Part shown: positions 5,770 through 59,504 of the stretch, in pieces
Layout: each line of letters begins with the position of its first letter
Position numbering within the stretch: the first letter of the stretch is position 1
Made by a program: the position numbers and the translations under genes
The notes under the pieces: generated by a model
The model's input: only the letters and a program-made list of their open reading frames with translations
The model's database searches: none
What the model was told of the DNA's origin: nothing
Origin: a virus
Length of the DNA stretch: 64,000 bases
IMG/VR virus record: IMGVR_UViG_3300044951_001887
Coordinates: 5,168 to 69,167 of that record
Direction: 5' to 3' (one strand)

Positions 5770-6237
5770 ATGAGTGACGTTATTATTGATTCTGCTTATT
5801 TCGGTCACGATAGCGGAACGAAGTTTTATGAAGTTAATTCGTTTGCAAACGCCAGTGAAAACACATTTATTCTGGTAAAGCGTTATGGCGCGTCAACAGC
5901 GTCAAGAAATGGTGGGGCGATAAAAATTGAGCATGAAGTCAGTCGAGAGTATTTGAAGGTTGCCTTCAATAACGCGATAAGAGATAGGCTAAGAAGAAAG
6001 GCTGGGAATGGGGGCTTCTATGAAAAGATGGAATCTTCAAGCCATATTAAAGGCTCGGGCGTTGCTACTGGTGATCATATAGAAGACTTGATTCAACGGC
6101 ACTATAAGCCAATTGCCGCGTCTCAAGTATTGGAAGCGCTGACGATGACAAAGTCTACGAACACGGCAAAGCCGAATTTCATAGTTCAAGATCCAGTTGA
6201 AGAGCCGCTTCGCGAACCGGATTGGGGAAGTTGGTGA
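5770..6237 (+). CDS. Hypothetical protein, C-terminus PDWGSW
   Basis: ORF downstream of an operator/promoter. Confidence 0.6.
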   Translation: MSDVIIDSAYFGHDSGTKFYEVNSFANASENTFILVKRYGASTASRNGGAIKIEHEVSREYLKVAFNNAIRDRLRRKAGNGGFYEKMESSSHIKGSGVATGDHIEDLIQRHYKPIAASQVLEALTMTKSTNTAKPNFIVQDPVEEPLREPDWGSW

Positions 6238-6440
6238 GTGAATTATTAACGGGGATTTCCAATATAACCGGCATTGATTGGAAGGCGCTTGTTGCAGAAG
6301 ACCCAACCGCTTTTAACTCAATCCTGAACGCGGTTAGTAATATACGTTCTGAAGAAGCAAAGAAAGCGCGAGAGAAAGAACCCGCTAAGTTCTCTCGGAC
6401 GCAAGACAAATCTGTCTATCCCGATTTTGGCGATTGGTAA
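6234..6440 (+). CDS. Hypothetical protein, C-terminus PDFGDW
   Basis: GTGA overlap with the upstream stop. Confidence 0.55.
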   Translation: MSELLTGISNITGIDWKALVAEDPTAFNSILNAVSNIRSEEAKKAREKEPAKFSRTQDKSVYPDFGDW

Positions 6441-6450
6441 GGAGAATTAA

Positions 6451-7044
6451 ATGAGTCAATTTGTTGATGAAGAGGTATATCCGGTTTCTGAATCTAGCAA
6501 GGGCTACAACGCATTCAGCGTCACCAATTGCGAATCGGCTGGTCATCAGCCAAGTTATTGCATTTGCTTGATGAAGATTGACGCAATGCGCCGCGATGGG
6601 AATTTGCGCGGCCTGTCTTGCGAGTCGGACATCTCCAATAAGACTTGTATTGCGTTGAATATGCGAGAAGAAGAAGTCACGGCGGGTAAGGCGATTTATT
6701 TTCTGAATCGCAAAAAACTCAACGAGTTCAACAATGCGCGTGACGCCAAAATGGTCGTTAAGGTAACGCCAAGCAATAAGCCGAGAAGGGCTATTTCACC
6801 CGAAGCGGAAGCAAGAGTTGCCAGTCAGTTTGAACATTCGCAACCCATTCAGCCAGTCATTCGAAAGTTGGAACCGGCGATCGAATCGGGTTCTTACGCT
6901 GACGCAATCAATTCGGCTATCGCTGAAAGTTTAAAACCGAAGGAACCCGCTCTTGTAAAAGAGCAAATCAATACCCCGCCACCGTCGGCGGGAATGAGTA
7001 TGCGGGAATTGGCTCGATTGAGTCTTGCTGCGAAAAATCAGTAA
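6451..7044 (+). CDS. Hypothetical Cys-containing phage protein
   Basis: AAGGAG RBS; 197 aa. Confidence 0.6.
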   Translation: MSQFVDEEVYPVSESSKGYNAFSVTNCESAGHQPSYCICLMKIDAMRRDGNLRGLSCESDISNKTCIALNMREEEVTAGKAIYFLNRKKLNEFNNARDAKMVVKVTPSNKPRRAISPEAEARVASQFEHSQPIQPVIRKLEPAIESGSYADAINSAIAESLKPKEPALVKEQINTPPPSAGMSMRELARLSLAAKNQ

Positions 7045-7058
7045 TCAAAGGAGAAACT

Positions 7059-7358
7059 ATGGAACACGAAAATATGGAAAATCCCGAAGTGGCAGAAATC
7101 GCCGCCACTTTCAAAGAATATCAATCCAAGCTGAATGAAGTCATCAGAGGTATGGTTGAGGATGGTGCAAACCCACCTATTTTGGCTTTTGCTTTGGGCT
7201 TTCAAATGGCTGAACTGGCGGCAAGCTTCATGAGCTTTCACGAATACGACGCCGACAGGGCATGTAACGCCTTCGATACGATGACGGCGGATATTCGGAC
7301 GGGTTTTGTTGAAATGCTCGAATTGTCGCTGGCTCAAGTTGAAAAGGCTAAAGCATGA
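7059..7358 (+). CDS. Hypothetical protein
   Basis: AAGGAG RBS; stop overlaps the ligase start. Confidence 0.55.
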   Translation: MEHENMENPEVAEIAATFKEYQSKLNEVIRGMVEDGANPPILAFALGFQMAELAASFMSFHEYDADRACNAFDTMTADIRTGFVEMLELSLAQVEKAKA

Positions 7359-8746
7359 ATTCCAACGACATTTTTCAACTGATCGAAAACGTCGCTGCGA
7401 CGGCCAGCAAAAACGAGAAGCAGGCTCTCGTTACGCGGTACATGAAGGAAGACCTCTTCAAGCGCGTCTGTCAGTACGCCTATGACCCGTTCAAGACCTA
7501 CGGCATTCGCAAGCGTCCAGAGACGACCCGCGAGAACGGAAACGCCGAATTTGATCCCGGCACCTGGAATCTTTTGGATGATTTGATCGCCCGTCGCCTT
7601 ACCGGCAACAACGCAATCGATGCGGTACGCGGTGAAATGACGGCGCTCTCGAAAGATTCTTCCGAGTTGTTATGGCGGATCATCAGCAAGGATCTTCGCG
7701 CCGGCTTCAGCGAGTCCACGATCAACAAGGCGTCGAAAGGGCTGATACCGGACTTCCCCTACATGCGCTGTTCGTTGCCAAAAGACGCAAAGCTGGAAGA
7801 GTGGCCGTTCGATTCAATCGGCTGTCTCAGCCAAGAAAAAGCAGACGGCATGTTTGCCAACATCGATCATGAAGTTGGCGGGCTTGTGAGTATTCGCAGT
7901 CGTCAGGGTTCGGAATTCCCGATTGACAAGTTTCCTCGCATCGTCGAGGAAGTCAAAAAACGTCTGTATCCGGATCATCAACAACACGGCGAGATTGTCG
8001 TTGTTCGCGACGGTGTTGTCTGTAAGCGTGAAATTGGCAACGGCATTCTGAACAGCGTGCTGAATGGTGGCGACTTCGCCGAAAACGAATATCCGGTGTA
8101 TTTGATTTGGGATCAAATTCCACTTGAGTCGGTGGTGACTAAAGGAAAGTACGACATGCCGTACAGACACCGTCTCGCCAGCGTGATCAGACAGTTAAGC
8201 GGTCAGACTGGTGACAGCTTGATGCTGATTCCGACAAAGGTTGTCAAGTCGCTGGCCGAAGCTTACGCACACGCCGCCGAATTGATGAAGACCGGCAAGG
8301 AAGGGTCTGTGGTCAAGAATCCCGAAGGTATTTGGAAGGACGGCACCAGCAAGCACCAAGTCAAGCTGAAATTGGAATTCGAAGTCGATCTGGTGGTAAT
8401 TGGAATCGAATTGGGTCGCATCGGTTCGAAGAATGAAGGAAGGCCGGGTGCGCTTGCTTGCGAAACGTCGGACGGTAAGCTTCGCACATCTGTTGCCGTG
8501 AAGAATGAGGCGATGCGTGACAACGTCGAGAGAGACCCGGAAGATTGGATCGATCGCATCATTCCGGTGACGGCAAACGACATCATGATGCCTGGCGGCA
8601 GCAGCGACTTTCACGCACTGTTCTTGCCGCGTATGACTGAAGCGAACTACCGCACGGATAAAACCGAGGCGGACAGTTTGACTCGCGTCTTCAAACAAAA
8701 AGACGCCGCGATCTTCGGTAAATCCATCTTGAGCGACGCGCTGTGA
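7355..8746 (+). CDS. ATP-dependent DNA ligase
   Basis: EKADG adenylation motif, HGEIV, EGSVVK, KLK, LFLPR. Confidence 0.92.
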   Translation: MNSNDIFQLIENVAATASKNEKQALVTRYMKEDLFKRVCQYAYDPFKTYGIRKRPETTRENGNAEFDPGTWNLLDDLIARRLTGNNAIDAVRGEMTALSKDSSELLWRIISKDLRAGFSESTINKASKGLIPDFPYMRCSLPKDAKLEEWPFDSIGCLSQEKADGMFANIDHEVGGLVSIRSRQGSEFPIDKFPRIVEEVKKRLYPDHQQHGEIVVVRDGVVCKREIGNGILNSVLNGGDFAENEYPVYLIWDQIPLESVVTKGKYDMPYRHRLASVIRQLSGQTGDSLMLIPTKVVKSLAEAYAHAAELMKTGKEGSVVKNPEGIWKDGTSKHQVKLKLEFEVDLVVIGIELGRIGSKNEGRPGALACETSDGKLRTSVAVKNEAMRDNVERDPEDWIDRIIPVTANDIMMPGGSSDFHALFLPRMTEANYRTDKTEADSLTRVFKQKDAAIFGKSILSDAL

Positions 8747-9432: not shown

Positions 9433-9447
9433 GTGTATGATTACAAA

Positions 9448-9506
9448 GGTAGAGCGTCTGCCTTACACGCAGAATGTCAGCGGTTCGAGCCCGTTAGCAC
9501 CCACCA
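9448..9506 (+). mobile_element. attP-like core: 3' portion of tRNA-Val(TAC)
   Basis: GGTAGAGCG-TCTGC-CTTACAC-GCAGA...GGTTCGAGCCC...GCACCCACCA. The 5' acceptor strand is missing, and the fragment lies directly upstream of the integrase. Confidence 0.85.
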
Positions 9507-9667
9507 GATATTTGTAACAAAATCAAAGACTTAGCGGAAATTCGATAGGTCTGATGATTTGTTTGACGCCTTCAACTACACTCTATCCCACTCTAAGACG
9601 CTCACAAAAACGTCAAAGACGACCGTATGACATGCCGTTAGGCAGAATGTTGGGAAGGGGTGGTCAA

Positions 9668-10759
9668 GTGGCATCGAAAAGAGAGAAGGGCCGAGGTTGG
9701 GAATTTACGGTCAAGCGGGCGGGCTTGTTGGAGAAGCCGCTGATCTTGACGTTCGCTACTGAGGCTGAAGGTGATCTGTTTTGCAAAAACTTGGAATCGT
9801 TGCTTGATCGCGGCATTGTGCCGACCGAGTATCGACCCAAGACCCGCGTTGTTTCGTTCGGCGATTTATCTGGGCAGTATTTGCGAGACGCGCAGGTATC
9901 AACAAACGACCGGGAGATTCTGCGCAGCCTGTCAGAAATAGCCAACACGCCGCTTTTGGCGATCAACGTCGAATGGGTAGACGCACAGGTTCAGCGAATG
10001 AAGCGCGAACTACATTACCGACCAGCAACGATTCGAAAGAAGATCGGGGCAATGGCCCGGTGCTGTGACTGGGGCATTCGACGCAAGTTACTCATTCTGC
10101 CAGACGCCCCATTTCGAACGCTGCCAGAAGGTTATGCGGCATACACCGAGACGGATGCTGCTTTGGCTGGCGGGGCGAAGTCGGACACGGAGCGCGACCG
10201 TCGCCTGGAGTCTGGGGAAGAGTTGGAGATTCGCAAAGTGTTGGAGCGCGGGGTTCTGTCAAGAAAGCAAAGAGAGTTCACCATTCCCAACCGTCAGGAC
10301 ATTGTTGCGCTATTTGAAGTGCTGCTTGAGACCGCCATGCGTTTGCGCGAGGCGTACACGCTGACGTCCGATCAAATCGACTTCAAAAGACAAACGATCA
10401 ATCTGGACAAGACTAAAAATGGAGACAAGCGACAGGTGCCGATGTCCTCTATTGCCGTCAAGGTGCTGCGACCGTATTCCAAAAAAGATGGGTACATATT
10501 CCCGTGGCTAGAAGAGCAGGGCGGCAACCTGAAGCTGACGACGAATTATCTCAGCAAGATGTTTGCCCAAGTCTTTGCCGACGCCGGTTGTCCGGATTTG
10601 CACACGCATGACTTGCGGCATGAGGCGACGAGTCGCCTATTTGAACGCACAGACTTTAAGGCGGAAGAGATTATGAAATGCACCGGACACAAGTCGCATC
10701 GGATGGTGATGCGCTATCTGAATCTACGCGGTTCCAATCTCGCCGCTAGACTCTGGTAG
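9668..10759 (+). CDS. int: Tyrosine recombinase/integrase
   Basis: TAMRLRE, TKNG, HDLRHEA, GH, RY catalytic residues; probable GTG start at 9668. Confidence 0.95.
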   Translation: MASKREKGRGWEFTVKRAGLLEKPLILTFATEAEGDLFCKNLESLLDRGIVPTEYRPKTRVVSFGDLSGQYLRDAQVSTNDREILRSLSEIANTPLLAINVEWVDAQVQRMKRELHYRPATIRKKIGAMARCCDWGIRRKLLILPDAPFRTLPEGYAAYTETDAALAGGAKSDTERDRRLESGEELEIRKVLERGVLSRKQREFTIPNRQDIVALFEVLLETAMRLREAYTLTSDQIDFKRQTINLDKTKNGDKRQVPMSSIAVKVLRPYSKKDGYIFPWLEEQGGNLKLTTNYLSKMFAQVFADAGCPDLHTHDLRHEATSRLFERTDFKAEEIMKCTGHKSHRMVMRYLNLRGSNLAARLW

Positions 10760-12108: not shown

Positions 12109-14052
12109 ATGAACGAACGTGTATTTCTGTTGCGTGAGGCGGTTGTAACCATCACGCAGATGCTTGCCGGTAAAGAAATTGATGTGACGCAGCGCGGAAT
12201 CAGCGCCTACGTCAAGTGCGATGCCGTTGGTAAGCCCATACAAGTCAACCTGCCTTACTTGCCCGACAACGCCACAGACGAACTCTGTGTCGCGATTCAG
12301 GGTTTTTTGGACCACGAAGTTGCGCATATCCTGTTCAGCGATTTCACGCTGATTCAAGTCGCAGCGAAAGCTGGCGCTCAGCAAATGCTGAACATTCTGG
12401 AAGACGCCAGAATCGAAAAGCGCATGGCTCATCGCTTCGCGGGCAGCGGCAGCAACTTGTCGTCAACCGGAAAATTCTTTCTTGATAATTACGTCATTCC
12501 CAAAATTAAAGAGGCGGGCAGCGACACCAACAGGGTTGTTGCGTTGCTGATGGTTCCGCTAATCCGCGCAATGTCGGGCCAGACGATTTTTCAAGAGTTC
12601 ATGCGGGATAAGGCCAGTCTGATGAAACCGGTGACGGACAAGATTGCTGACCTGGCACCGAAGATGGAAGCCGCCGCATCGACTCAAGCTTGTCTGGACT
12701 TGGCACTCGAAGTGAATAAGCGTCTTCGCTCAAAAGAGACACCGGACGAAGGTGAAGAAGGCGACTCTCCGTCCACGAGAGCGAAAAAAGCACCCAAGTC
12801 CAAGCCAGCTTCGGAGAAAGCCGAAGAGAAAGAAGAGGAAGAGAAAGAAGAGGAAGAGAAAGAAGAGAAAGAAGAGAAGGGCGGCGAAGATGAAGATGAA
12901 GGCGAAGGCGAAGAGAAAGAGAAGGCCGAAGAGGAAGACGAAGAAGGCGAAGAGGAAGGTGAAGGCGAAGAGGAAGGTGAAGGCGAAGGCGAAGGTGACT
13001 CGCCGGGCGGCTCTGAACTTGAAGAATCTGATCCTGAAGATTCGGAATCGAAAACGGGCATTTCGTCGGCGATGATGGACGAAATCGACAAAGAAACGGC
13101 GAACGGGTATGACGAATCCATCAGCACCATCATTAGTGACGGCGCTACAGAGGCGGCAAAGAATTCGAAGTATCTGGTTTTTACGAAAGAAGGCGACAAG
13201 GTTGAAAGCTTGCACGTTGGGCGAGCTTACGATCCGGAGATGGCGGTAAGTCTTTCCAGCGCCGTTGATCACATGGTTGGCCCATTGCAGAAAGACCTTG
13301 AGCGAGCCATCGCCGCTCGTTCGTTGTCGTCATGGGAATCTGGCCGAAAGTCTGGTCGGTTGCATCCGGCCAACTTGTCTCGACTTGCCGTTGGCGATGC
13401 GCGAGTGTTTCGCAAGCGTCACGAATCCACCAGCAAAGATGTGGCGGTCGAGTTGGTGATTGACGCCAGCGGTTCGATGCAAGGTTCGAAAATTCATCTG
13501 GCTACGCAGGCTGCGTATGCACTTTCTCAAGTGCTTGAGCGTATCGGCATCGCACATGAGGTTATTTGTTTTACGACAGGCCCGTCAGCCGCCGGCGATT
13601 CGGAGCTTGCTGCTGAATCCAAGAAGATCGGTCGTCAGTTTTCCAGAGTGGAGAGTTTGTATATGCCGATTCTGAAAGGCTACAGCGAAAGGTTGAAAAC
13701 GGAAGTCCGCTCTCGGTTTGGTTGGCTTCCCCACTCAAACATTCTGCGGAACAACGTTGATGGCGAGTGTATTGAGATTGCGGCGCGTCGTCTTTTGGCT
13801 CGTCGCGAGAGCGGCAAAGTCATGATCGTTCTGTCTGATGGTTCACCTAACGCCGCCGGCGATGGCGGTTCGTTGTCGCCGCATTTGGTGAAGGTAGTGA
13901 AGGACATCACGAAGGCTGGAGTCAATGTTGTCGGTATCGGAATCGAATCGTCCGCCGTTCAGAGGTTCTATCCAAAGAATATCGTCATCAATAACGTGAG
14001 TGAGCTGCCGAACAGAGTAATCAAGGAATTGCGTCATCTGCTGGTCGGTTAA
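12109..14052 (+). CDS. CobT-like VWA-domain protein with an acidic linker
   Basis: DHEVAH and LEDARIE in the N-terminal domain, E/G-rich linker, MIDAS DASGS, LSDG. Confidence 0.85.
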   Translation: MNERVFLLREAVVTITQMLAGKEIDVTQRGISAYVKCDAVGKPIQVNLPYLPDNATDELCVAIQGFLDHEVAHILFSDFTLIQVAAKAGAQQMLNILEDARIEKRMAHRFAGSGSNLSSTGKFFLDNYVIPKIKEAGSDTNRVVALLMVPLIRAMSGQTIFQEFMRDKASLMKPVTDKIADLAPKMEAAASTQACLDLALEVNKRLRSKETPDEGEEGDSPSTRAKKAPKSKPASEKAEEKEEEEKEEEEKEEKEEKGGEDEDEGEGEEKEKAEEEDEEGEEEGEGEEEGEGEGEGDSPGGSELEESDPEDSESKTGISSAMMDEIDKETANGYDESISTIISDGATEAAKNSKYLVFTKEGDKVESLHVGRAYDPEMAVSLSSAVDHMVGPLQKDLERAIAARSLSSWESGRKSGRLHPANLSRLAVGDARVFRKRHESTSKDVAVELVIDASGSMQGSKIHLATQAAYALSQVLERIGIAHEVICFTTGPSAAGDSELAAESKKIGRQFSRVESLYMPILKGYSERLKTEVRSRFGWLPHSNILRNNVDGECIEIAARRLLARRESGKVMIVLSDGSPNAAGDGGSLSPHLVKVVKDITKAGVNVVGIGIESSAVQRFYPKNIVINNVSELPNRVIKELRHLLVG

Positions 14053-14157
14053 GGCGGTATAAAAATAAGTCATAAGTGACTACTCATTCCTGACTGACAT
14101 CTGTAATATCTGTTCTGTCGCAGCAAGTGTGCTGCATTGATCATCAAGGAGATTCAA

Positions 14158-15342
14158 ATGAGCGACAAAATCACCTGTAAGCTTTGTGGCGCAATGGTTC
14201 ACTCCATTCAGGTACACCTGAAGAGCAACCATCCAGAAGAGACAATCGAAGGCTACATTCGACAGTTCGGCGAAGATGTGCCTTTGATGTCTGACATGGC
14301 GTTGCAAAAGCTTGCCGAGCGTCGCGCTGCAAAAGAAGCCGAGTCAAGTCAGAAGATCGAAATGTCCGGTACGAAAGATGAGATTTCCACTTCTAGCGTC
14401 ATCCCCCAGGATGCGGTCGTCAAGAAGGCGTTTCATGAAGTCTTCAATCTTGGCAACGGCAAAGCAGCCAAGTCCGCTAAGGGTGAGGCGATTCCAATCT
14501 CTGTCGTAGCAAATCCCGCCATGCCCGACATGGTGCCGACCCTGTCCAATGATTACGTTTATGACATCGATGAACTCAAGAACGTCATTCTGGCGCTGGA
14601 GTTGAACATCCCCTGTTACGTTTGGGGCCACAAGGGTTCGGGCAAGTCTGAGTTGTTGGAGCAGATCGCCGCTCGTACCGGTCGCCCCTACATGCGGGTT
14701 CAACATACGGTCAACACTGAAGAGAGCCATATCGTTGGTCAGTGGACTGTTCGTGATGGTCAGACCGTATTCGAGCTTGGCCCACTTCCGTTAGCGATGA
14801 TTAACGGCTGGATGTACTGCGCCGACGAATACGATTTTTCACTGCCGAGCGTTCTGTCCGTCTATCAAGCGGTATTGGAGGGTAAGTCACTGGTGATTAA
14901 AGAGGCTGACGCCGCTAATCGCATCATCAAACCGTCTCCAAACTTTCGCTTTTGTGGAACGGGGAACACGAACGGCAGTGGCGATGAGACGGGTCTGTAT
15001 CAGGGAACGTCAATTCAGAATGCCGCAAACTTCGACCGTTTTGGCGTCGTGATTCACAAGCAGTATATGAAGAAAGCGGCAGAGTCTCAGATCCTCGTGA
15101 ACCGTGTCGGTTTGGTCAAAGAAGATGCGGACAAGATGGTCGATTTCGCCGGGCTGGTTCGCGAGGCGTATGACGGTGCAAAGATCAGTGATGTGATTTC
15201 GCCGCGAACCCTTATCTTCGCCGCAAAGATCGGCGTCAAGCGTGGCAGTTTCCGTCAGGGCATCGTGCTGTCATTCATCAACAAGCTTTCGAAGGTGGAC
15301 CGCGAAATTGTCGACGGCTTGGCTCAAAGGGTCTTTGGCTAG
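14158..15342 (+). CDS. CobS/MoxR-like AAA+ ATPase
   Basis: N-terminal CxxC..H..H, GHKGSGKS, ADEYD, NFDRF, SPR. Confidence 0.88.
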   Translation: MSDKITCKLCGAMVHSIQVHLKSNHPEETIEGYIRQFGEDVPLMSDMALQKLAERRAAKEAESSQKIEMSGTKDEISTSSVIPQDAVVKKAFHEVFNLGNGKAAKSAKGEAIPISVVANPAMPDMVPTLSNDYVYDIDELKNVILALELNIPCYVWGHKGSGKSELLEQIAARTGRPYMRVQHTVNTEESHIVGQWTVRDGQTVFELGPLPLAMINGWMYCADEYDFSLPSVLSVYQAVLEGKSLVIKEADAANRIIKPSPNFRFCGTGNTNGSGDETGLYQGTSIQNAANFDRFGVVIHKQYMKKAAESQILVNRVGLVKEDADKMVDFAGLVREAYDGAKISDVISPRTLIFAAKIGVKRGSFRQGIVLSFINKLSKVDREIVDGLAQRVFG

Positions 15343-15395: not shown

Positions 15396-16247
15396 ATGAG
15401 CCTTAAAGATTCTGGAATTTACTGCATCACGCATATCGCCTCTCAACGACGTTACGTTGGGAGTGCGGAAAACTTGGAGAGACGCTTCAAAAAACACCTA
15501 ACGCAACTTCGTAGAGGCGCCCATCACTCCTACAAGCTGCAAGAGGCTTGGGATAAGTTTGGAGAAGGGGCATTCGAAATGACTGTTGTTATCAGGTGTC
15601 CGGTCGAGAAGTTGATGGATCTGGAACAAAAGGTCATTGATAGGTTCGGTGCTGCGATTTCTGGATACAACGTGGCGAGCTTCGCAGATTCTCCAAACAA
15701 AGGAAAACATCACTCTGAAGAGTCGCTGGCGAAAATGCGGGAGTCACACAAAAAACGCAAGCCAATCTCGGAAGAAACCAGACAGCGGTTGCGTGACGCG
15801 GCGGCTGAACGCGAGCGCATGAAAAAAGAAAGTGGATTTCGCGTTTCGGACGAAACGAGAGAAAAGCTCGCCGCTGCCGCGACCGGTCGTGAAGTTTCCG
15901 AAGAGACTCGGAAGAAGATTGCTGCGGCCAACTCAGGCAAGCCTTTATCTGAAGAACATCGCCGAAAGCTGTCGGACGCTCAAAGGGCGAGAGAGAAAAA
16001 CTCAGAAGCGGAAGTCGCCGGTCGCATTACCGCCGCTTTGAAAAATAAAGGAAAAGAGCGATCTGCCGAGTTCAAGGCGCTGATGTCAAGCTTGGCAAGC
16101 AACAGGTCTGAAGAACATCAGGCAAAGCTGACGGCTGCGCTTATTGGCAAGTCGCCTTCGGAAGAGTCGAGGGCAAAAATGTCAGCCTCAAGACGTGCTT
16201 ATTGTGAGGCGAAAGCCGTCGCAGACTTATGTTTGGAGGGCAAATAA
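15396..16247 (+). CDS. GIY-YIG homing endonuclease with NUMOD3 repeats
   Basis: SGIYCI..YVGSA..RF..H; repeated SEETR/SEEHR motifs. Confidence 0.92.
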   Translation: MSLKDSGIYCITHIASQRRYVGSAENLERRFKKHLTQLRRGAHHSYKLQEAWDKFGEGAFEMTVVIRCPVEKLMDLEQKVIDRFGAAISGYNVASFADSPNKGKHHSEESLAKMRESHKKRKPISEETRQRLRDAAAERERMKKESGFRVSDETREKLAAAATGREVSEETRKKIAAANSGKPLSEEHRRKLSDAQRAREKNSEAEVAGRITAALKNKGKERSAEFKALMSSLASNRSEEHQAKLTAALIGKSPSEESRAKMSASRRAYCEAKAVADLCLEGK

Positions 16248-16900
16248 TGGAGCGACAGGGCTTAGACCGCTACTACGCGGATAACGTTGGGCTGATTCAC
16301 TCGGTTGCCCGAAAGGGCTTCCGAAGACTTCAAGCGATTGGCGCGATAACGGATTACGACGATCTGGTTCAGGAGTTGGCCGTCACTTTCATCAAGTCCT
16401 ATGATCTTTTTGATGAAAGCAAAGGCGCTTTTTCCACGTACTTTGTTCGATCCGCCTTCAACAAGGTGAACCGTATCGCCGAAGCGCATGAGATTGAGCG
16501 CTTGGAACTTCGCATTCGCTCGGTTGAGGAAATGTCCTCATGGCAAGAAGACGGTGAGATGTCTGTCGAAGAAACCATCGCCGGAAACGAGCCGACGCCG
16601 GCGCAGCACTATGAGGCGAAAAATGTGCGCTTGGGGATTCTCGATGCGCTGTCGCCTGTAGCTGAAATGATTGTCGAGATGGCGATCGATCCACCTGACT
16701 TTATCGAGCGGGAGTTTGCCGCACAGGTCGCTCACGCCGAGTTTGCAAGAAGCAATGGCGTTGAAAAACGTTCGCGTGGCTCGCTCAACGTGGCGTTCGT
16801 TTGTTCCGTTTTGGAGCGCACCACCGAACTGTCGTCTTCAATTTTGAGAGCGGCAAAGTTGGAAGTTCTTTCTGCTGCCGAGAGGTTAAAAAATGATTGA
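16247..16900 (+). CDS. Phage sigma-70-like factor (region 2-like)
   Basis: LIHSVARK..YDDLVQE...FD.SKG.FSTY. Confidence 0.7.
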   Translation: MERQGLDRYYADNVGLIHSVARKGFRRLQAIGAITDYDDLVQELAVTFIKSYDLFDESKGAFSTYFVRSAFNKVNRIAEAHEIERLELRIRSVEEMSSWQEDGEMSVEETIAGNEPTPAQHYEAKNVRLGILDALSPVAEMIVEMAIDPPDFIEREFAAQVAHAEFARSNGVEKRSRGSLNVAFVCSVLERTTELSSSILRAAKLEVLSAAERLKND

Positions 16901-20500: not shown

Positions 20501-21036
20501 TCATCGCTTTGGCGCAAGAGTACAAGAAGTGTGATGGCTGCGATTTGAGCGGTCAGCCACATCCAACCATTCGCTGCAAATCGACAGTCAAGTTCATGGT
20601 TGTCTCGGATTGTCCAAATTGGCAAGAAGAGAAAGCCGACAAGCTGCTTGAGGGTGACTCGGCTGACTATGTGAAGGCGGCAATCAAAGACGCTGGACTC
20701 AGCATCTCCGATGGCTACTTCACGACGCTGGTCAAGGCGAAGAAAAGCGACAAGTTCTTGAGCAATGCGCAGCTTAACGGTTGCCGACATTTTCTTGAGC
20801 GTGAAATCGAACTGATCAAGCCGGCGGTAATCGTTGCACTTGGGTCTGCCGCGATCAAACACTTCTTGCCCGGCACGAAGGGAAGCACGGCGGATTTGGT
20901 TGGAAAGGTTGTTTACGATCCGAACCTTGACGCCTCGATTGTCTGCGGCATCAATGCGCAGCAATGCTTTTTTGATCCAAACAAAGCAGACATTTTGGGT
21001 GGTGTTTTTGAGCGGGTTTCAGAAATTATTAACTGA
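17581..21036 (+). CDS. dnaE: DNA polymerase III alpha subunit with a C-terminal UDG-like domain
   Basis: PHP domain, GPGRGS, PDADLDF, GVFQFES, YGFNRSH; C-terminal CxxC..C/LEREIELIKP..IVALG. Confidence 0.95.
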   Translation: MSLRHAHIRSDFSIGKSLLQIDHAIERAKELGYESVTLCDEMSLHGMVDFSNKAKKAGIKPIIGCNLRVYDDPTYRKPPKSSGDKEKPNLSYQIKVYAMDERGIKSLLKLLSKAYSAEYFYYHARCGLDDVMALEGIAVSTGDFYNVFIHPNHDAIVATLHAKFATFVELVPIDTPLFDTLNGKALETIAKGNYPALVTYPTLYKDIGDGPTLDVLGCITTNTQMDVSYRPKQFVQDFAFLEPNILLDHVKKASKRVHQWGCLPVTSNRPAVWANGLKNIETLATICTYEFKKQDVCLPKMADNEFVTLGKKCIEGWLKRFSSSVMGHKPSPHELQTLYKPRLEFELGVLKKMGFSGYFLLVEDLVMWSKSNEIIVGPGRGSVGGSLVAYLLGITDVDPIRFKLLFERFINPDRLDLPDADLDFMSSKRHLVIEYLTNKYGKEYVAGISNYSTMASASALRDAGRMYGLSGLDLMATKLVPKEHGQSFTLTESAKAVSEIEQFKNDHPEVWIHALKLEGAMRSFGQHAAGLIVAGEPLVERAVVETRGESPVVNWDKRVVEDWGLIKMDLLGLSTLDVLEIAKRYIKERHGVTVDYLKLPIEEADVMAAFGRGDTTGVFQFESGGMKGLLRNLAKESPLTFEDITAATALYRPGPMDSGLMTDFIAIKQGLKSVYYDHPNMENALKDTYGVIVYQEQVMQVAVDLAGFTRAEADHLRKAMGKKDKDKMAEMRQKWVDGCGSKSGMNEERAGLLFDKIEAFAGYGFNRSHAVEYSIISVWTMWVRCRYPAEYFAACMSIVKEDKLPGLVMDAREYGIEVMPPDINVSCDRFTIPDDKHILAPFSSVMGISESTARRIVELREKNRDWKVIKTKNKRDGTTEDIWGLDEESPVKGRFDSFDEFTRVAAEPKSKVNSRVVDNLNLVGAFANIEPGSKPARHLDRRKVQTQLMPGLIIDSVKADRTTDVADKFLRTKIIALAQEYKKCDGCDLSGQPHPTIRCKSTVKFMVVSDCPNWQEEKADKLLEGDSADYVKAAIKDAGLSISDGYFTTLVKAKKSDKFLSNAQLNGCRHFLEREIELIKPAVIVALGSAAIKHFLPGTKGSTADLVGKVVYDPNLDASIVCGINAQQCFFDPNKADILGGVFERVSEIIN

Positions 21037-21110
21037 AGACAATCCAAAAATGTAAGTCAATAATGACTATAGTTTCAACGCAGCAAGCATTTATTAACAA
21101 GGAGATTCAA

Positions 21111-41742: not shown

Positions 41743-42243
41743 ATGATTTTTCAACTCAAAATTCTGGACGAGCGTGGTCGTCCTACTCGTGGCTCAGCGA
41801 TGGCGGCAGGTTATGACGTTGTGGCCTGCTTGGATGAAAAGATCACAATTCGTCGTTACGACGCAGCGCGATTCATTCCTCTCGGCTTCGCTTGCTTCAT
41901 GAATGAGGCTGCTGTAGTTGGTTTCGTCCTGCCCCGAAGCGGATTGGGTCACAAGCAAGGTTTGGTTCTTGGCAACACTATTGGCGCGGTTGACGGCGAT
42001 TATCAAAATCAATGGTTCGCCTCCATCTGGAATCGCGGACAACAGGACGAAATCATCATCAATCCCGGCGACCGTATTGCTCAGGTTGTATTCATGCCGG
42101 TCATTCACCCGAACTTCCAAGAGGTTGAAGAATTCTCGGAAGTAACGGAGCGCGGCTTGGGTGGCTTTGGCAGCACTGGCGTTGGTGCTGCGAATGTTGT
42201 GCTCTTTCCGGGCGGCGGTCTGATGACGCCGCAAGTGCATTGA
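41743..42243 (+). CDS. dut: Trimeric dUTPase
   Basis: AAGYD, PRSGLG, GAVDGDY, GDRIAQ, RGLGGFGSTG. Confidence 0.95.
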   Translation: MIFQLKILDERGRPTRGSAMAAGYDVVACLDEKITIRRYDAARFIPLGFACFMNEAAVVGFVLPRSGLGHKQGLVLGNTIGAVDGDYQNQWFASIWNRGQQDEIIINPGDRIAQVVFMPVIHPNFQEVEEFSEVTERGLGGFGSTGVGAANVVLFPGGGLMTPQVH

Positions 42244-47492: not shown

Positions 47493-48032
47493 GTGGAATT
47501 TATAGTTTTAGATACCGAGACAACTGGCCTTCATCAAGAGAAGGGCCATCGCATCGTTGAAATCGCTTTGCTGCGTTATGACCTTGAGTCCAGAAAATTG
47601 CTCGACTCTTGGGTCAAGCGTATCGATCCAGAGCGACCTATCGATCCCGGCGCTCAAGAAGTTCATGGCATTGCTTACGAGGATCTGGTCGGTTGTCCCA
47701 AGTGGGAAGAGTTGGCGGGTGAAATCAGTCGTCGCATGGACTCGTGCGACTTGCTGGTGGCTCACAACATGGGATTCGATGGCCCGTTCATCGGGTTGGA
47801 ACTGAGTCGCGTCGGCGTCATGGTTCCGCGCACCGATACGTTCTGCACGATGGAAAACGCCCGCTGGGCTTGCCCTGATGGCAAGTTACCGAAGCTGATG
47901 GAGGTGGCTTTCGCGCTACAAGTCCCGTATGACGCGTCCGCCGCTCATGCTGCGTCATACGATGTCTCGATTACTGCGGAGTGTTTCTTTCGCGGTTTAG
48001 AGCGCGGGTTTTATCAATTACCAAAGGGTTAA
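47493..48032 (+). CDS. DnaQ/DEDDh 3'-5' exonuclease
   Basis: LDTETTG, AHN..FD, H.A.YD. Confidence 0.9.
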   Translation: MEFIVLDTETTGLHQEKGHRIVEIALLRYDLESRKLLDSWVKRIDPERPIDPGAQEVHGIAYEDLVGCPKWEELAGEISRRMDSCDLLVAHNMGFDGPFIGLELSRVGVMVPRTDTFCTMENARWACPDGKLPKLMEVAFALQVPYDASAAHAASYDVSITAECFFRGLERGFYQLPKG

Positions 48033-50684: not shown

Positions 50685-51140
50685 GTGAAAGCCAAAAATA
50701 AAGGTTATTTCGACCGTGACAACAATCCAATCACGAAAGAAGCGTGGTTGGCTTTTCGGTTAGATCCATCTTATTTATCTATTCGTCTCTATGACAACGA
50801 AGTCGTCCATCTCGAATTGCTTTGGCATGGGGTGGTTGATAATCCGAATCTCACTTTTCCAAGTATGTATCCGCTGTTTTACATGGTCGTGATGAATTAC
50901 AACGGCGAAGGGAAAGCGGTTCCCGATCCGGTTGAAAATGGCAAATCATACGCCACCATCGAACTCGGTATCGCGGCTTATGAGAAGTTTCTGGAGCGGT
51001 GGACGAATTCTTCTAAAGAGGAAGGTGTCTTTGTCGAGAAAGACAACCTGCTGACACCACCGCCACCACCGAATCCCGATGCGCCGGCGGCAAAAGCCGA
51101 ATACAAGAATGTCGAGATTGACGACTGCGGCGCCTGGTGA
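50685..51140 (+). CDS. Hypothetical protein, C-terminus DCGAW
   Basis: 151-aa ORF with a poly-Pro linker. Confidence 0.55.
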   Translation: MKAKNKGYFDRDNNPITKEAWLAFRLDPSYLSIRLYDNEVVHLELLWHGVVDNPNLTFPSMYPLFYMVVMNYNGEGKAVPDPVENGKSYATIELGIAAYEKFLERWTNSSKEEGVFVEKDNLLTPPPPPNPDAPAAKAEYKNVEIDDCGAW

Positions 51141-52531: not shown

Positions 52532-52606
52532 CCCAAGATGGGCGAAAGCCCATCCAAACGTGAGCTTATCAAGGTCGGCTCACTTTTGGATCAACCTGGA
52601 GATAAT

Positions 52607-52936
52607 ATGAATTTGAGCAAATTGGCTTTGTTGTCTACTGATGCGCTGACCGTCATGCAATCGGCAATCAAAGACATTCTGGCGTCTCGCTTGGACACGA
52701 CGCTGCGAATCGGTCGAATTGGCAGGTTCCCGTATGACGGCACACATCGGACGATCATGATCGAAAGAATTAATGGCAAAACGGTTTCAGGTCGCGAGAT
52801 TGGAACGTCAGTCAAACCCGGTTCGAAATGGCGGGTATCGAAAAGCGTTGTCGAAATCGTCGGTGAGGAACGCAAGGTTCCCCTTCCGACTAAACCGCTG
52901 GCTGAGCATAAACCGGCTCAAGGTGGCGACTGGTAA
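52607..52936 (+). CDS. Hypothetical protein, C-terminus GGDW
   Basis: GGAG RBS. Confidence 0.55.
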   Translation: MNLSKLALLSTDALTVMQSAIKDILASRLDTTLRIGRIGRFPYDGTHRTIMIERINGKTVSGREIGTSVKPGSKWRVSKSVVEIVGEERKVPLPTKPLAEHKPAQGGDW

Positions 52937-52989: not shown

Positions 52990-53273
52990 GATTATTCGAC
53001 AAAGCCAAGGCATTCGCGAATATCGAACGCCAAAGGTTCGGGTTTCGACCAGTTCGGTAAATTGAAACCATCGAAGCCCGTCTGCCTGCGACTACGATGC
53101 GCTACAGTCTATTAAATCGGTGCGGGTAAGGGTAAGGGCAGGGTAATAACGCGGAGCGCTTAAATCGCGTTATAGAGCTTCGGTTGGCAAGATTACGGAC
53201 GCCTGTGAACTACCGACTCAAGCCTACAACCGGTGGTCAAAATTCATCTGTCGAAACGAACACGGAGAATCAG

Positions 53274-53768
53274 ATGAAAAACCCGAAAGTGGAAAGCGAG
53301 ACTTTGGTGGAATACAAAGTCGATTTGAATGGCGAAGATCAGATCATCGCGAAAGCGTTGGAAATTCTGCATCGTCGAATGACGAAGTTTGGCGATTCGA
53401 TGAGTTCGCCAACGGTTGTTCGCAATTACCTGTCGCTGAAACTGGCCGAATTGGAACATGAAGTGTTCGCCTGTATTTTCTTGAATTCGCAGAATCAGGT
53501 GATCGCCTACGAAGAAATGTTTCGCGGCACACTGACACAGGCTTCAGTCTATCCACGCGAGGTTGTCAAGCGGGCGTTGGCCCTGAATGCTTGCGGCGCG
53601 ATTCTCGCCCACAATCACCCGTCAGGCGTCAACGAACCCAGTCAAGCCGACCGTTGGCTGACCGATCAACTGAAAGCGGCGTTGGGGTTGGTGGACGTGA
53701 AGGTTTTGGACCACATCATCATCGCGGGCGCCACCAGCTTGTCTTTTGCTGAAAGAGGCTGGGTTTAA
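53274..53768 (+). CDS. radC: RadC-like JAB domain protein
   Basis: EVF..LN, VYPREV, AHNHPSG..PS.AD, LDHII. Confidence 0.92.
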
Positions 53769-54473: not shown

Positions 54474-54905
54474 ATGTGGACTAAGGACAGCATTCAGAAT
54501 CTTCTGTCTTCCAGCGACAAAGCGGTCGCTCGGGCGGTTGTTGCCATCTACGCAAGACAGACCAACGACGAACAGGCAACCGAATCGACGCGACACACGA
54601 ACGGCGCTGGCTTCAATCACGCCGATGCTCAGCGTGGCAGCTACTACGCCACCTATGTTCAGCGTACCGGTCGCCTCACCGGGCGCCATCTCGAACTCGC
54701 CCGCAAGATGGTTGGCAAGTATTGGCGACAACTCGCTGAAATCGCGAACGAGAAGGCGGCGCCAGCCGTAGAGCCTGACGCGGGCAACATCGAAGAGGCG
54801 ATGCTGGCCGATGCCGAAATGAACGCGATCATTCAGATGGCTGAAATCGAAGAAGAGCGTCAACGTCAAGCCTACAAGCTCGCCCGCGATGGCGTTAATT
54901 GGTAA
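54474..54905 (+). CDS. Hypothetical protein, C-terminus GVNW
   Basis: Follows a repeat module; RQT.DEQ..T..NG.GF..DA. Confidence 0.65.
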   Translation: MWTKDSIQNLLSSSDKAVARAVVAIYARQTNDEQATESTRHTNGAGFNHADAQRGSYYATYVQRTGRLTGRHLELARKMVGKYWRQLAEIANEKAAPAVEPDAGNIEEAMLADAEMNAIIQMAEIEEERQRQAYKLARDGVNW

Positions 54906-55615: not shown

Positions 55616-55617
55616 TC

Positions 55618-56450: not shown

Positions 56451-56746
56451 AAAGACCTTCACTTCCAAAAGCTTATGATCGATTTGGATCAAGCATGGGT
56501 CGCGACGATGGCGTTTACGAACCCGATGCCGCCATTCAGTTCAACCTTTACAGATTGGAAATCAAGCAAGGTTATGACGCCGGCGGCGCGTACTGGGGCG
56601 ATGGCAGTTACAAGACCGGCGTGATGTACCGCGCCTACGGCGACGGCCCCGAATGGCGCAACGAAATGTTCGTTCGGGCCACTTCAAGGGAAGAGGCGAA
56701 AAAGCAGGTTTTGGCGAAATTCAAAAACGCGACATTTTACCGCTGA
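56447..56746 (+). CDS. Hypothetical protein
   Basis: GSSMGR, GYD.GGAYWG; AGGAG RBS. Confidence 0.65.
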   Translation: MKRPSLPKAYDRFGSSMGRDDGVYEPDAAIQFNLYRLEIKQGYDAGGAYWGDGSYKTGVMYRAYGDGPEWRNEMFVRATSREEAKKQVLAKFKNATFYR

Positions 56747-56802
56747 CGCGCCTAAGTCAGTAGTGAATAATGAAGTCTCTGAAACGAAGCGAGGTAAACG
56801 AA

Positions 56803-57141
56803 ATGGCAAAGACCCCAAAAAGCGTAGTTGCACTGATGGCGAATCAGCAAGCGCTGATGGATCACATCACTGAAGTTCTGCGCGTCAAGCGCGAAACGCC
56901 GATCGAGTATCAAGCCAGTCACGTTCGCGACAAGTCGGAAGAGTATTACATCGGCTTGGCTGACGGGACGAACTCAATGTTGGAAAACGCGCTGCACCAA
57001 CACAAATGCTACGCGGGCTTTTCCTACATGGGCGCGACGAAGAAGAACTGGGATGGATCTTCGCACTGTCAATCGACCGGGCCTGGCAAGCCTGACTACG
57101 CTGAGTGGCGCCGTCTTTACTACACGAACGGGGTGGCGTGA
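56803..57141 (+). CDS. Hypothetical protein
   Basis: RBS in the repeat module. Confidence 0.6.
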   Translation: MAKTPKSVVALMANQQALMDHITEVLRVKRETPIEYQASHVRDKSEEYYIGLADGTNSMLENALHQHKCYAGFSYMGATKKNWDGSSHCQSTGPGKPDYAEWRRLYYTNGVA

Positions 57142-57374
57142 TGTCTGACAAGATACTCAAGATAGGCGACACCGTCGTATGGCGGGCGATGTTCGGAACC
57201 GCTTTGCCGCTTCACGCCAAGATCAAAGGAATCACGCTTTGCGAATCGGAGCGCATGAAGTCGGGCATCGAAGTAGGCGAGGCATTTTGGAAAGAAAAGA
57301 ATCGTCTTTGTGTCGGCTTGACCAATGGCAGTTGGGCCTACGGTTATCAAATATCACCCATAAGTGAGGCATAA
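57141..57374 (+). CDS. Hypothetical protein
   Basis: TGATG coupling. Confidence 0.55.
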   Translation: MSDKILKIGDTVVWRAMFGTALPLHAKIKGITLCESERMKSGIEVGEAFWKEKNRLCVGLTNGSWAYGYQISPISEA

Positions 57375-58330: not shown

Positions 58331-58483
58331 ATGCCGAACTACACCGACCTGTCCACTGACTTTCTCGACGCGATGTTGGATGCGCGAGACGACTTCATGC
58401 CTTCTTTCGCCGAACTCCCGCTTCACACCCAAGAGCGCAAAGACATGCGCAAAGACTTTTATGGATCTTTCCTCGCAGTATGA
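58331..58483 (+). CDS. Small hypothetical protein (50 aa)
   Basis: GAGGT RBS in the repeat module; ATGA overlap with the next gene. Confidence 0.5.
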   Translation: MPNYTDLSTDFLDAMLDARDDFMPSFAELPLHTQERKDMRKDFYGSFLAV

Positions 58484-58728
58484 AACCCATTCCTGAACAC
58501 ATCACACCGATCAAAGTCGACGGCGCCAAACTGGTTGTTTGGCACACGCAGCTCGACGTTGCAGGCTACGAATCCCCAACCGGCGACATTCTCGCAATCA
58601 AGGGTCAGGCGGTATCTGATGAACTGCGCGACATCGTACCGATAGGCACGCAGATTTCATCGCTTGCAAGATACGACCTGACTGAAGCCAAACTCATCGT
58701 CAAGCGCCGATACAACATCGACCTTTAA
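58480..58728 (+). CDS. Hypothetical protein
   Basis: ORF ending before a terminator. Confidence 0.55.
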   Translation: MKPIPEHITPIKVDGAKLVVWHTQLDVAGYESPTGDILAIKGQAVSDELRDIVPIGTQISSLARYDLTEAKLIVKRRYNIDL

Positions 58729-58733
58729 AACGA

Positions 58734-58763
58734 TTGGAGGCACTAAACAAGTGCCTCAATTTT
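58734..58763 (+). terminator. Hairpin terminator
   Basis: GAGGCACT-aaaca-AGTGCCTC-aatttt. Confidence 0.6.
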
Positions 58764-59076
58764 AAGCAACACACAGCCGAGGAATAAACCCTCGCAACCC
58801 TTTGATTCCAAAGGGAATTCTAGCGCCCGCACCCCGCCTAAACGCTTTTGCTTAAATATTAAGCAAACTAGACTCCCAACTGAACTTGAATCGACAAACA
58901 AACAACACAAAACAATCGCAATTAAACGAGCGGGAAGGGCTCAAATTGAAGCGCAAAATATAAACCGATACCGGGAGCAGCAAAAAGACGAAACCCGCTA
59001 GAACGGGCTCAAATCGAATCGAAGCGAATCCAACCTCGAAACGGTAAAATCGAAGAACTGCAAAAACGAGCAAATC

Positions 59077-59316
59077 ATGGAAATCACAGAAGAGATGAGA
59101 GGCAAACTTCCAACGAATTACGAAATCGTAAAGACTGGAACCATTGAAGATGGCGACCTACGATGGAGCAAAATCAGCGAACTCGGTAGATGGATCAAAA
59201 CCGTACACAGAGTAGGAAGCAAAATCGAAAAATGGGATTACCCGACCGCCAAACGTAAACCGGAAACAGAGGCTACGAAGAAACACAGGCTGGAACAAGG
59301 CTGGGGCGAATGGTGA
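59077..59316 (+). CDS. Small protein, C-terminus GWGEW
   Basis: Paralogous to the next ORF (YE.I.TGTI..GD). Confidence 0.55.
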   Translation: MEITEEMRGKLPTNYEIVKTGTIEDGDLRWSKISELGRWIKTVHRVGSKIEKWDYPTAKRKPETEATKKHRLEQGWGEW

Positions 59317-59504
59317 ACGATAGGCCACCACCAGGCTACGAAACAATAACGACAGGCACAATTCAAGCAGGCGACTACAAATATTCCAACAGACAACAGA
59401 AGTGGATAACTGTAGAAGAGAACAACTTGGGTGAAACCATCTGCAAAGCATTCGACATAGCCAGAAAGGAAGAGAACCAAACACCGGATTGGAATAGTTG
59501 GTAA
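59310..59504 (+). CDS. Small protein, C-terminus DWNSW
   Basis: Paralogous to the previous ORF. Confidence 0.55.
   Translation: MVNDRPPPGYETITTGTIQAGDYKYSNRQQKWITVEENNLGETICKAFDIARKEENQTPDWNSW

Follow-up and report, generated by a model that had tools for sequence, protein, structure and literature searches.

An aromatic C-terminal tail shared by unrelated small proteins of an SSU5-like phage, a probable docking peptide

Ten small proteins with a common C-terminal tail

The DNA analysed here, referred to as the window, is a stretch of 64,000 nucleotides (bases 5168-69167) of the 69-kb IMG/VR virus record IMGVR_UViG_3300044951_001887, which is estimated to be 66% complete. Nearly every gene of the window lies on the plus strand, and ten of them encode small proteins that end in variants of one tail: an aromatic or hydrophobic residue, Gly (Ala, Asn), any residue, and a Trp or Phe bearing the free carboxylate, often with Pro-Asp/Asn in front. 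We consider it likely that this tail is a C-terminal docking peptide, tying some ten unrelated phage proteins to one common partner that co-evolves with the phage lineage. The ten C-termini had been pointed out in a preliminary description of the window, and all of them, together with their stop positions, are exact in the sequence. The carriers are listed below, where the strict motif stands for [WFYIM][GA]x[WF] with its end at the final or penultimate position.

5770-6237, plus strand: 155-aa WGR-like protein directly after the primase gene, with a linker; ends REPDWGSW (strict motif)
6222-6440, plus strand: 72-aa small protein with its start at TTG 6222, TTG 6231 or GTG 6234; ends VYPDFGDW (strict motif)
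26291-26647, plus strand: 118-aa ExoX-like_C (FGKYKG) protein downstream of the RecA-like gene; ends YADSWGSF (strict motif, Phe-ended)
31256-31891, plus strand: family B protein of about 200 aa (probable start ATG 31289) between the Rad50/SbcC-like and the RuvC-like gene; ends YESLGFGSW (strict motif)
32514-32993, plus strand: 159-aa protein after the RuvC-like gene; loose tail TDSIEAW
50685-51140, plus strand: 151-aa protein with a PPPPP linker; ends EIDDCGAW (Gly-x-Trp form)
52538-52936, plus strand: 132-aa protein, phrog_10017; ends PAQGGDW (Gly-x-Trp form)
54474-54905, plus strand: 143-aa protein, phrog_21015, with a conserved N-terminal domain and a variable extension; tail RDGVNW
59077-59316, plus strand: 79-aa small protein; ends EQGWGEW (strict motif)
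59310-59504, plus strand: 64-aa small protein; ends TPDWNSW (Asn replaces Gly)

Nine of these tails end in Trp and one in Phe. The bodies in front of them had been described as unrelated apart from the last two, and at the level of BLAST this is what we found: all-against-all blastp of the ten proteins pairs only 59077-59316 with 59310-59504 (E 7e-5), which are paralogs. The accompanying remark that the tail often follows a flexible Pro-rich or charged linker fits 50685-51140, 5770-6237 and 6222-6440, all with a PPPPP or charged linker, but it does not fit family B, in which the tail follows a long predicted helix. Pfam and PHROGs searches with the ten carriers named only ExoX-like_C (in 26291-26647, PF20600 at 2.1e-8), phrog_10017 and phrog_21015, and NCBIfam gave no match for 5770-6237 and 31289-31891. 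The AlphaFold2 model of family B (mean predicted local distance difference test score 74.8) shows a beta core (residues 82-142) and a long helix (164-194) that ends in the tail. Foldseek returned no match to this model at E<=1e-3; VIA-align reached at most Z 5.1 (4.3-4.9 for Rad50 lobes), which is under the level the tool treats as meaningful, and we assign no fold.

A name or a position can be given to the WGR-like protein and the small protein after the primase gene, to the ExoX-like_C protein after the RecA-like gene, and to the genes flanking the RuvC-like gene. In the related phage nickie, the tail is found on the product of the gene after dnaQ, a homolog of 50685-51140, and on a protein annotated as Mu Gam-like, which ends ADFGHFS. 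Among the carriers for which family or position gives a clue, most are accessory factors in DNA replication and recombination; the remaining ones are small early genes without an assigned function, and none of the large enzymes has the tail. In five of the ten carriers a Tyr is present 6-11 residues before the end (VYPDFGDW, SYADSWGSF, KYESLGFGSW, EYKNVEIDDCGAW and AYKLARDGVNW); a Tyr at positions -5 to -12 is seen in 23% of all called proteins of the contig. In family B this Tyr is invariant. The motif may extend over more than four residues.

Enrichment, conservation and wording of the tail

Four relatives were compared with the window phage: RHEph10 (Rhizobium), nickie (Pseudomonas), SSU5 (Salmonella) and G001, a complete 108-kb genome with terminal repeats, whose DnaB is 58% identical to that of the window. 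The DnaE-type polymerase of the window is 36-43% identical to those of RHEph10, nickie, Stenotrophomonas phages and SSU5, and the gene order agrees with that of the RHEph10, nickie and SSU5 phages (~105-120 kb). Judged by these similarities, the window phage is SSU5-like.

The expectation that Trp recurs at the extreme terminus more often than by chance is confirmed by simple counts. Our own codon-usage gene call for the whole contig, made with a crude caller, comprises 100 genes, nine of which end in Trp versus 1.28 expected from composition (binomial p 6e-6). Nine of the ten carrier open reading frames (ORFs) are included in this call with positive scores; ORF 59310-59504 was displaced by an overlapping minus-strand ORF in the greedy step. 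One of the nine Trp-ended genes, absent from the preliminary list, is the integrase gene 9554-10759, whose ARLW end is probably due to chance. The pattern [WFY][GN]x[WFY] occurs 17 times in the 19,088 residues of the contig, five times as the last four residues. For the strict pattern, the counts were compared with the internal rate and with composition-matched random tails (1000 sets):

Window contig: 5 strict tails vs 0.30 expected; random 0/1000; Poisson p 1.5e-5
G001: 6 strict tails vs 0.50 expected; random 0/1000; Poisson p 1.4e-5
RHEph10: 4 strict tails vs 0.38 expected; random 1/1000; Poisson p 6.2e-4
nickie: 6 strict tails vs 0.34 expected; random 0/1000; Poisson p 1.5e-6
SSU5, first 100 kb: 2 strict tails vs 0.29 expected; random 45/1000; Poisson p 3.4e-2
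Sum of the five genomes: 23 strict tails vs 1.8 expected; Poisson p 5e-18

Enrichment over background is thus found in the window contig and the four relatives, and the strict tail is absent from the controls, lambda (0/62 called genes) and T7 (0/40). Counts of Trp-ended genes, which involve no tuning, agree for the window (above) and for G001 (9/156 vs 2.06, p 2.5e-4). In RHEph10 the plain Trp-terminal count is 0 because its tail ends in Phe. A looser statistic for [GA]x[WF] ends was dropped, such ends being too common (RHEph10 4 vs 2.70, SSU5 4 vs 1.86).

Conservation of the terminal motif in homologs had been proposed as a further check, and the motif is indeed kept while the bodies diverged to 23-37% identity. 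The clearest case is family B, in which six of six database homologs (34-77% identity), or seven of seven sequences with the window copy, end GF[GA]SW; Y192, G196, F197, S199 and W200 are invariant, compared with a mean column identity of 49%. Its ortholog in G001 ends EGFGSW, and a tblastn search of phages with this family gave no match. The pair of genes after the primase gene ends EEWGSW and then P[ED]WGTW in each of the five loci of relatives that extend to these genes (L011-L015, with two distinct wordings). The first of the pair, 5770-6237, matches G001 31245-31694 and L013 3717-4172, both ending EEWGSW, at blastp E 1.7e-12 to 8e-16. The Pfam WGR domain (PF05406) is detected in these two homologs at 6e-11 and 2e-12 and gives no match in the window copy, which, judged by this homology, is a diverged homolog of the WGR-domain protein. 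A search for related loci with the WGR-like protein as query found none. For the second of the pair, 6222-6440, the genes in the same position end PEWGTW or PDWGTW in G001, L011 and L013-L015 and ENFGRF in RHEph10 (gp035), and the body of the window protein could not be aligned with them.

Several other carriers behave similarly. The alignment of 26291-26647 with the G001 gene 72827-73198, which ends YEGTWGSF, is limited to the final 23 residues (E 0.014). In the position of 32514-32993, G001 has a gene (56703-57191; 23% identity over 148 aa, E 0.04) that ends TTASDAW. The G001 orthologs of 50685-51140 (76392-76832, E 2.6e-22) and 52538-52936 (78240-78692, E 9.5e-12) end TDSFGAW and DAYDSAW, respectively, and the nickie match to the former (gp065, E 4e-4) ends DAGGWS. 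In total, four G001 orthologs keep the terminal Trp at 28-37% identity. Among 16 members of the 54474-54905 family, four are short forms without the C-terminal extension and 12 carry an extension that varies in both length and sequence; eight of these long forms end in Trp, three in an aromatic residue plus one more residue and one in neither. Because the tail is kept across variable bodies and extensions, it behaves as a portable module on a variable linker.

The wording of the tail on unrelated proteins depends on the lineage: WG[ST]W in the window phage and G001, FGRF in RHEph10, GGWA in nickie and WATW in SSU5. Genes in the positions of the window carriers end NPRFGMF (gp034), ENFGRF (gp035) and NPNFGRF (gp068) in RHEph10, in which two further proteins end NPMFGRF and HPNFGRF; GWGAFG (gp108), DFGGWA (gp091) and DIGGWA (gp090) in nickie; and TGWATW (SSU5_042), PTWATW (SSU5_076) and PAWDW (SSU5_105) in SSU5. 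The nickie form has one small residue after the aromatic one. The RadC-like (JAB) protein of the window, 53184-53768, ends FAERGWV, Gly-Trp plus one residue, and so resembles the nickie form; it was excluded from the carriers. Of the last five residues, tails from different families of the same lineage have a mean of 2.71 in common, compared with 1.68 for one family in different lineages and 1.65 when both family and lineage differ. In other words, the tips of unrelated proteins in one phage are closer to each other than the tips of orthologs are across phages. Such in-step re-wording on unrelated proteins is the pattern predicted by one receptor drifting with the lineage.

The tail is essentially confined to the C-terminus. 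The four-residue wording of each lineage is terminal in 19 of its 22 occurrences in the five genomes (window 5/5, G001 5/7, RHEph10 4/5, nickie 2/2, SSU5 3/3). An internal copy that might serve as a self-ligand was sought in the DnaB-like helicase, primase, ligase, CobT, CobS, DnaE, the single-stranded DNA-binding protein (SSB) and the RecA-like protein, and none was found; the few internal copies sit outside these candidate hub proteins. The N-terminus of the RecA-like protein was also considered as the source of a mimicked polymerisation motif, and no aromatic-Gly-x-aromatic sequence was seen there.

Selection on the tail acts at the protein, not the DNA, level: the codons for Gly, Ser and Phe vary synonymously between orthologs, all three stop codons are used, and the sequences downstream of the stops share nothing. 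Hence no ribosome-binding site, repeated intergenic module or nucleotide motif explains the tails. A nucleotide-level by-product would find some support in 31256-31891, where the Gly-Ser codons GGGAGT, 8 nt ahead of the overlapping start codon (ATG) of the RuvC-like gene, could also serve that gene for ribosome binding; a ribosome-binding site does not, however, account for the aromatic residues. We regard such a by-product as highly improbable, and the same low estimate covers two other explanations, namely chance, which the enrichment far exceeds, and a signal for capsid loading or co-injection. The last of these had been put forward in the preliminary description, and shells can read C-terminal peptides, as they do with cargo tags of the encapsulin type. 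Nonetheless, all carriers of the window and of the complete G001 fall within 31-80 kb, among genes for replication and recombination and small early ones, and none is found in the first 24 kb of G001, the structural region as deduced from the gene order of RHEph10, nickie and SSU5. The stretch directly ahead of the replication genes, which holds the structural genes in the cultured relatives, thus contains none of these carriers, and DNA-metabolism domains are present in several carriers (WGR, ExoX-like_C and, in nickie, Mu Gam-like), so that a role in packaging is unlikely.

The tail as a docking peptide and its candidate readers

If the tail is a docking peptide, every carrier would be tethered by it, via a flexible linker or a helix, to one shared receptor. 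The receptor would read both aromatic side chains and probably also the free terminal carboxylate, as the strict terminal position suggests. It would co-evolve with the phage, which makes a phage-encoded receptor likelier than a highly conserved host protein. The earlier proposal is thus supported in part: the enrichment, the conservation at the protein level, the terminal position and the in-step wording favour a shared docking signal, whereas the hub is something we infer.

Several points weigh against this reading. Docking itself is deduced from conservation and co-variation. The strict pattern was shaped after seeing the data, and the trailing residue was allowed because of nickie; the plain Trp-terminal count is unenriched in nickie (3 vs 1.78) and SSU5 (3 vs 1.31). 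Four of the ten window tails (SIEAW, DGVNW, QGGDW and DDCGAW) fall outside the strict motif and are included because relatives keep the terminal Trp. The gene caller errs both ways: one nickie 'hit' is a wrong-strand ORF over cobS, whereas RHEph10 gp034 (NPRFGMF) and nickie gp091 (FGGWA) and gp065 (AGGWS) were missed and had to be read from annotated coordinates, and nickie gp058 (AGSWA) was called but went unscored, the strict pattern not allowing Ala in its first class. Carriers were matched with genes of RHEph10, nickie and SSU5 by gene order only, and the family B profile run on the ORFs of these three phages had its best match in RHEph10 gp068 at E 0.54, which is not significant. Finally, the figures for change in step come from 16 hand-entered tails, in which the kinship of the window phage and G001 was handled by pooling them into one lineage.

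Two explanations dispense with a docking hub. One is that the tail is a degradation tag read by a protease of host or phage, such as an AAA+ protease, that clears early proteins on schedule. C-terminal tags on unrelated proteins are a known way of marking substrates, several carriers are small early proteins, and RHEph10 gp093 and nickie gp006 are annotated 'peptidase HslV family'. However, the window contig (66% complete) has no match to the proteasome/HslV family (PF00227), and no HslV is annotated in the first 100 of the 103 kb of SSU5. In addition, the carriers include conserved replication and recombination accessory genes at fixed positions throughout the group, lineage-specific re-wording would be unexpected if conserved host proteases were the readers, and we know of no degron of the form aromatic-Gly-x-aromatic. 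This explanation therefore seems distinctly improbable to us. The other, to which we give a slightly smaller chance still, is that there is no common reader and the tail acts in cis, either as a DNA mimic folding onto the protein's own nucleic-acid surface or as a weak membrane or interface anchor. Aromatic and acidic residues can mimic single-stranded DNA, as in T7 gp2.5, and a fold-back in cis has been proposed for the SSB and gp2.5 tails; several carriers also have nucleic-acid-related domains or annotations (WGR, ExoX-like_C and, in nickie, Mu Gam-like). Yet one would not expect unrelated folds all to require these four residues and to alter them jointly from lineage to lineage, and the RHEph10 tails are basic, not acidic.

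The phage-encoded candidates for a common reader are found among the following genes, identified by Pfam and NCBIfam scans and listed with the att-like tRNA-Val part and the integrase gene next to it:

1247-2017: PhoH-like
3204-4625: DnaB-like helicase
4586-5704: primase
7355-8746: ATP-dependent ligase
9435-9503: att-like part (3' part) of tRNA-Val, adjoining the tyrosine integrase gene
9554-10759: tyrosine integrase
12109-14052: CobT (CobT_C/vWA)
14137-15342: CobS (AAA_5, CbbQ_C)
16229-16900: sigma factor
17581-21036: DnaE with a C-terminal UDG-superfamily domain
22574-23398: gp32-like SSB (PF08804, 8.7e-21)
23458-24363: 5'-3' exonuclease
24367-25374: RecA-like
27522-28628: Mre11-like
29353-31299: Rad50/SbcC-like
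31885-32463: RuvC-like
47493-48032: RNase T-like exonuclease
53184-53768: RadC-like (JAB)

A phage replisome or recombination protein, such as the C-terminal domain of DnaE related to uracil-DNA glycosylases (UDG), the gp32-like SSB, the DnaB-like helicase or the RecA-like protein, is a reasonable candidate, with a chance that we put somewhat short of even. On a rough estimate, the host sliding clamp and CobT/CobS each have a minor share, that of the clamp being if anything the larger, and what is left falls to something else. Residues 1002-1102 of DnaE match the UDG superfamily (PF03167, 1.3e-7), as do ~111 of the 120 DnaE homologs listed. The sites that we take to be the motifs of family-4 glycosylases read VSDCPNWQEE and GINAQQ instead. 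With these motifs apparently lost, the domain could have become a binding module, and it may be an inactive one. A single four-chain complex-prediction job, which combined the beta clamp of a candidate host, residues 1-230 of the phage SSB, residues 905-1151 of DnaE and, as partner, the C-terminal 45 residues of the WGR-like protein, gave a score of 0.00 (mark 0.32) without controls and speaks neither for nor against any chain. The DnaB-like helicase ends ITGVLRIE and has no aromatic tail. The gp32-like SSB ends DELDDLLDEMAA, a different, acidic-leucine tail that it has in all four genomes compared, the SSB ends of RHEph10, nickie and SSU5 being similar.

The conserved gene right after DnaE (21063-21881) encodes DDELEALMAELES in its N-terminal part, and the N-termini in L021 and L072 are similar; together with the SSB end, this is possibly a second docking peptide. 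This gene has no Pfam match, and its helical C-terminal domain is reminiscent of T4 UvsY. In L071 (1501-2371, 88% identical to 21063-21881) two ORFs take its place, divided at a GTQA repeat that corresponds to a PEPK repeat in the window; the cause may be frame variation driven by the repeat, or an error of sequencing.

The host beta sliding clamp would be the reader if the tail were a divergent clamp-binding motif that places phage accessory factors on the clamp of the host, a reading that we hold to be rather unlikely. No DnaN-like (PF00712, PF02768) or gp45-like (PF09116) gene is detected at E<=1 in the window contig or the complete G001, although a very divergent clamp could escape these profiles; with a DnaE-type polymerase and no clamp gene, the host clamp would be needed, if any clamp is. 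Many unrelated clients with a short terminal hydrophobic motif are also typical of clamp binding. The clamp pentapeptide has Gln at position 1, a hydrophobic residue at 2, a small or acidic one at 3, Leu at 4 and Phe or Leu at 5, and the C-terminal clamp motif of E. coli Pol II reportedly combines hydrophobic residues at 2 and 5 and a small one at 3 with a free carboxylate. Set against this pentapeptide, the tail has its two aromatic residues (W/F) in the spacing of positions 2 and 5 and a Gly at position 3, all of which fit. In all tails compared, on the other hand, position 1 is D/E/N/G/S/T and never Gln, and position 4 is S/T/D/E/R/G/A and never Leu. As to how far this matters, the conserved Gln is described in a review as adding affinity while being dispensable, and terminal LGL and LF as interchangeable (PMC11139829). 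Clamp motifs may moreover be internal, whereas the tail is almost strictly terminal, and the clamp pocket is highly conserved (61% mean column identity in 32 betaproteobacterial clamps), which fits poorly with wording that varies by lineage. This wording differs even between the enterobacterial SSU5 and the betaproteobacterial window phage, though their hosts differ as well.

The third candidate, named already in the preliminary description, is the phage's own CobT/CobS pair. The von Willebrand factor A (vWA) domain of CobT, through its metal ion-dependent adhesion site (MIDAS), would capture the free carboxylate and the aromatic residues, and the MoxR-class AAA+ protein CobS would remodel, load or release the client. 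Across MoxR-vWA systems, the vWA domain is stated to capture an extended or unstructured peptide via the MIDAS, after which the ATPase acts on the bound protein (PMC7159879). Both genes are encoded in the replication module of the window and also in four of four relatives examined, the MIDAS residues D-x-S-G-S, T and S-D-G are intact in five of five CobT sequences, and the strict terminal position suggests that a carboxylate is read, as capture by vWA would need. CobT homologs in the phage collection are nearly confined to the SSU5 group (31/33 records). The tails and CobT/CobS occur together in five of five SSU5-group genomes examined, but these share nearly all genes. While the candidate gains from the intact MIDAS, it loses from Roseobacter phage CRP-810, which has CobS and CobT, is otherwise unrelated and shows no aromatic-Gly-x-aromatic tail among the 56 annotated coding sequences of its first 50 kb, although this is one genome. 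Furthermore, RHEph10 tails such as NPNFGRF have no acidic residue, so that only the terminal carboxylate could reach the metal, and the link between the pair and the tails is a proposed one. That the tail is an address for CobT/CobS, with the CobS ring loading, remodelling or recycling a set of replication, repair and host-takeover factors, thus appears unlikely. If it were true, the 'cobalt chelatase' genes of SSU5-group phages would have a function, and MoxR-vWA chaperones would have a new system for addressing their clients. CobS itself ends RVFG in the window (14137-15342), RIFGA in G001 (40918-42150) and RVFA in CRP-810 (1827-3680), and this conserved aromatic-plus-small end is probably a part of the CbbQ_C domain rather than a tail.

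The docking reading has several known counterparts. In T7, as here, unrelated proteins of one phage end in a short tail with an aromatic last residue: gp2.5 ends EADEDGDF and gp4 ends DWSNDTDF (read from NC_001604), which may be compared with FGDW and GGDW in the window. The acidic T7 tails mediate contacts with T7 DNA polymerase and replication partners, according to one paper (PMC12339929), and titles in its reference list call the terminal Phe of gp2.5 essential. There, however, two proteins carry the tail, SSB and helicase, and the tails are long and strongly acidic, whereas here there are about ten carriers, neither SSB nor helicase among them, and the tails, whose character is only weakly acidic (basic in RHEph10), include another aromatic residue three positions upstream. 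The bacterial SSB tip consists of acidic residues followed by Ile-Pro-Phe-COOH; a tip of this type is also seen on CRP-810 gp27. It resembles the tail in being an extreme C-terminal hydrophobic or aromatic peptide with a free carboxylate, a flexible linker and a hub interaction. The topology is inverted, though, since SSB offers one tip to many pockets, whereas here many proteins have the tip. The tail thus shares with the SSB and T7 peptides the aromatic or hydrophobic extreme C-terminus with its free carboxylate; it lacks their acidic run, having usually one or two Asp/Glu (PDWGSW, PDFGDW, EEWGSW) and none in RHEph10 (NPNFGRF, NPMFGRF and HPNFGRF, with Arg), and it is absent from the phage's own SSB and helicase.

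Clamp-binding tails are likewise short hydrophobic motifs, often C-terminal, by which many unrelated DNA-metabolism proteins address one hub pocket, but the tail has no Gln at 1 and no Leu at 4, is strictly terminal and is worded by lineage. T4 gp45, an activator of late transcription (PMC2988020), is like that of RB69 a phage-encoded clamp, whereas none was found in the window contig or the complete G001. As for vWA-MoxR systems, the likeness lies in the CobT/CobS pair with an intact MIDAS that the window phage encodes; the difference lies in CRP-810 and in the link between tail and pair being proposed. Taken together, the tail would work like the T7 tails, the SSB tip and the clamp-binding tails, while by defining features it belongs to none of them. 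We found no description of the tail in the literature searched, supplementary files (e.g. of the SSU5, nickie and RHEph10 genome papers) not being covered. The preliminary description had called the system undescribed, which agrees with this search; a C-terminal docking peptide with a hub is, however, a variant of an already known principle and not a new kind of system.

If one partner does read the tail, four residues delimit a functional group of 2-10 proteins in each genome, the majority without an assigned function. Such proteins span a large and widespread group of ~105-120-kb phages and phage-plasmids, including the cultured SSU5, nickie and RHEph10 and elements in clinical Enterobacteriaceae. 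The tail would then be a direct experimental handle on the hub of the replication and recombination system, on the roles of the carriers and on the involvement of CobS/CobT, and its step-wise re-wording between lineages would show, as a natural experiment, how a short linear motif co-evolves with its reader.

Genome setting and host

Megablast of 20 kb of the window against phages gave no match, and comparison of the conserved gene 2108-2836 with a protein atlas gave no functional lead. The host is probably a betaproteobacterium, since an exact 53-mer of the tRNA-Val part is present in 12 contigs of betaproteobacterial metagenome-assembled genomes, including Thiobacillus, Hydrogenophilales, Gallionellaceae and Tepidiphilus, and the sources of close DnaE homologs are named Undibacterium, Paraburkholderia, Ralstonia, Duganella and Herbaspirillum. 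The tRNA-Val part is absent from the E. coli genomes searched. Together with the adjoining integrase gene, this att-like part points to a putative integrative lifestyle. ARAGORN also identifies a permuted tmRNA with the tag ANDEQYTVLQAA at 37597-37982, together with five tRNA genes (Met, Tyr, His, Thr, Arg) at 36671-39508.

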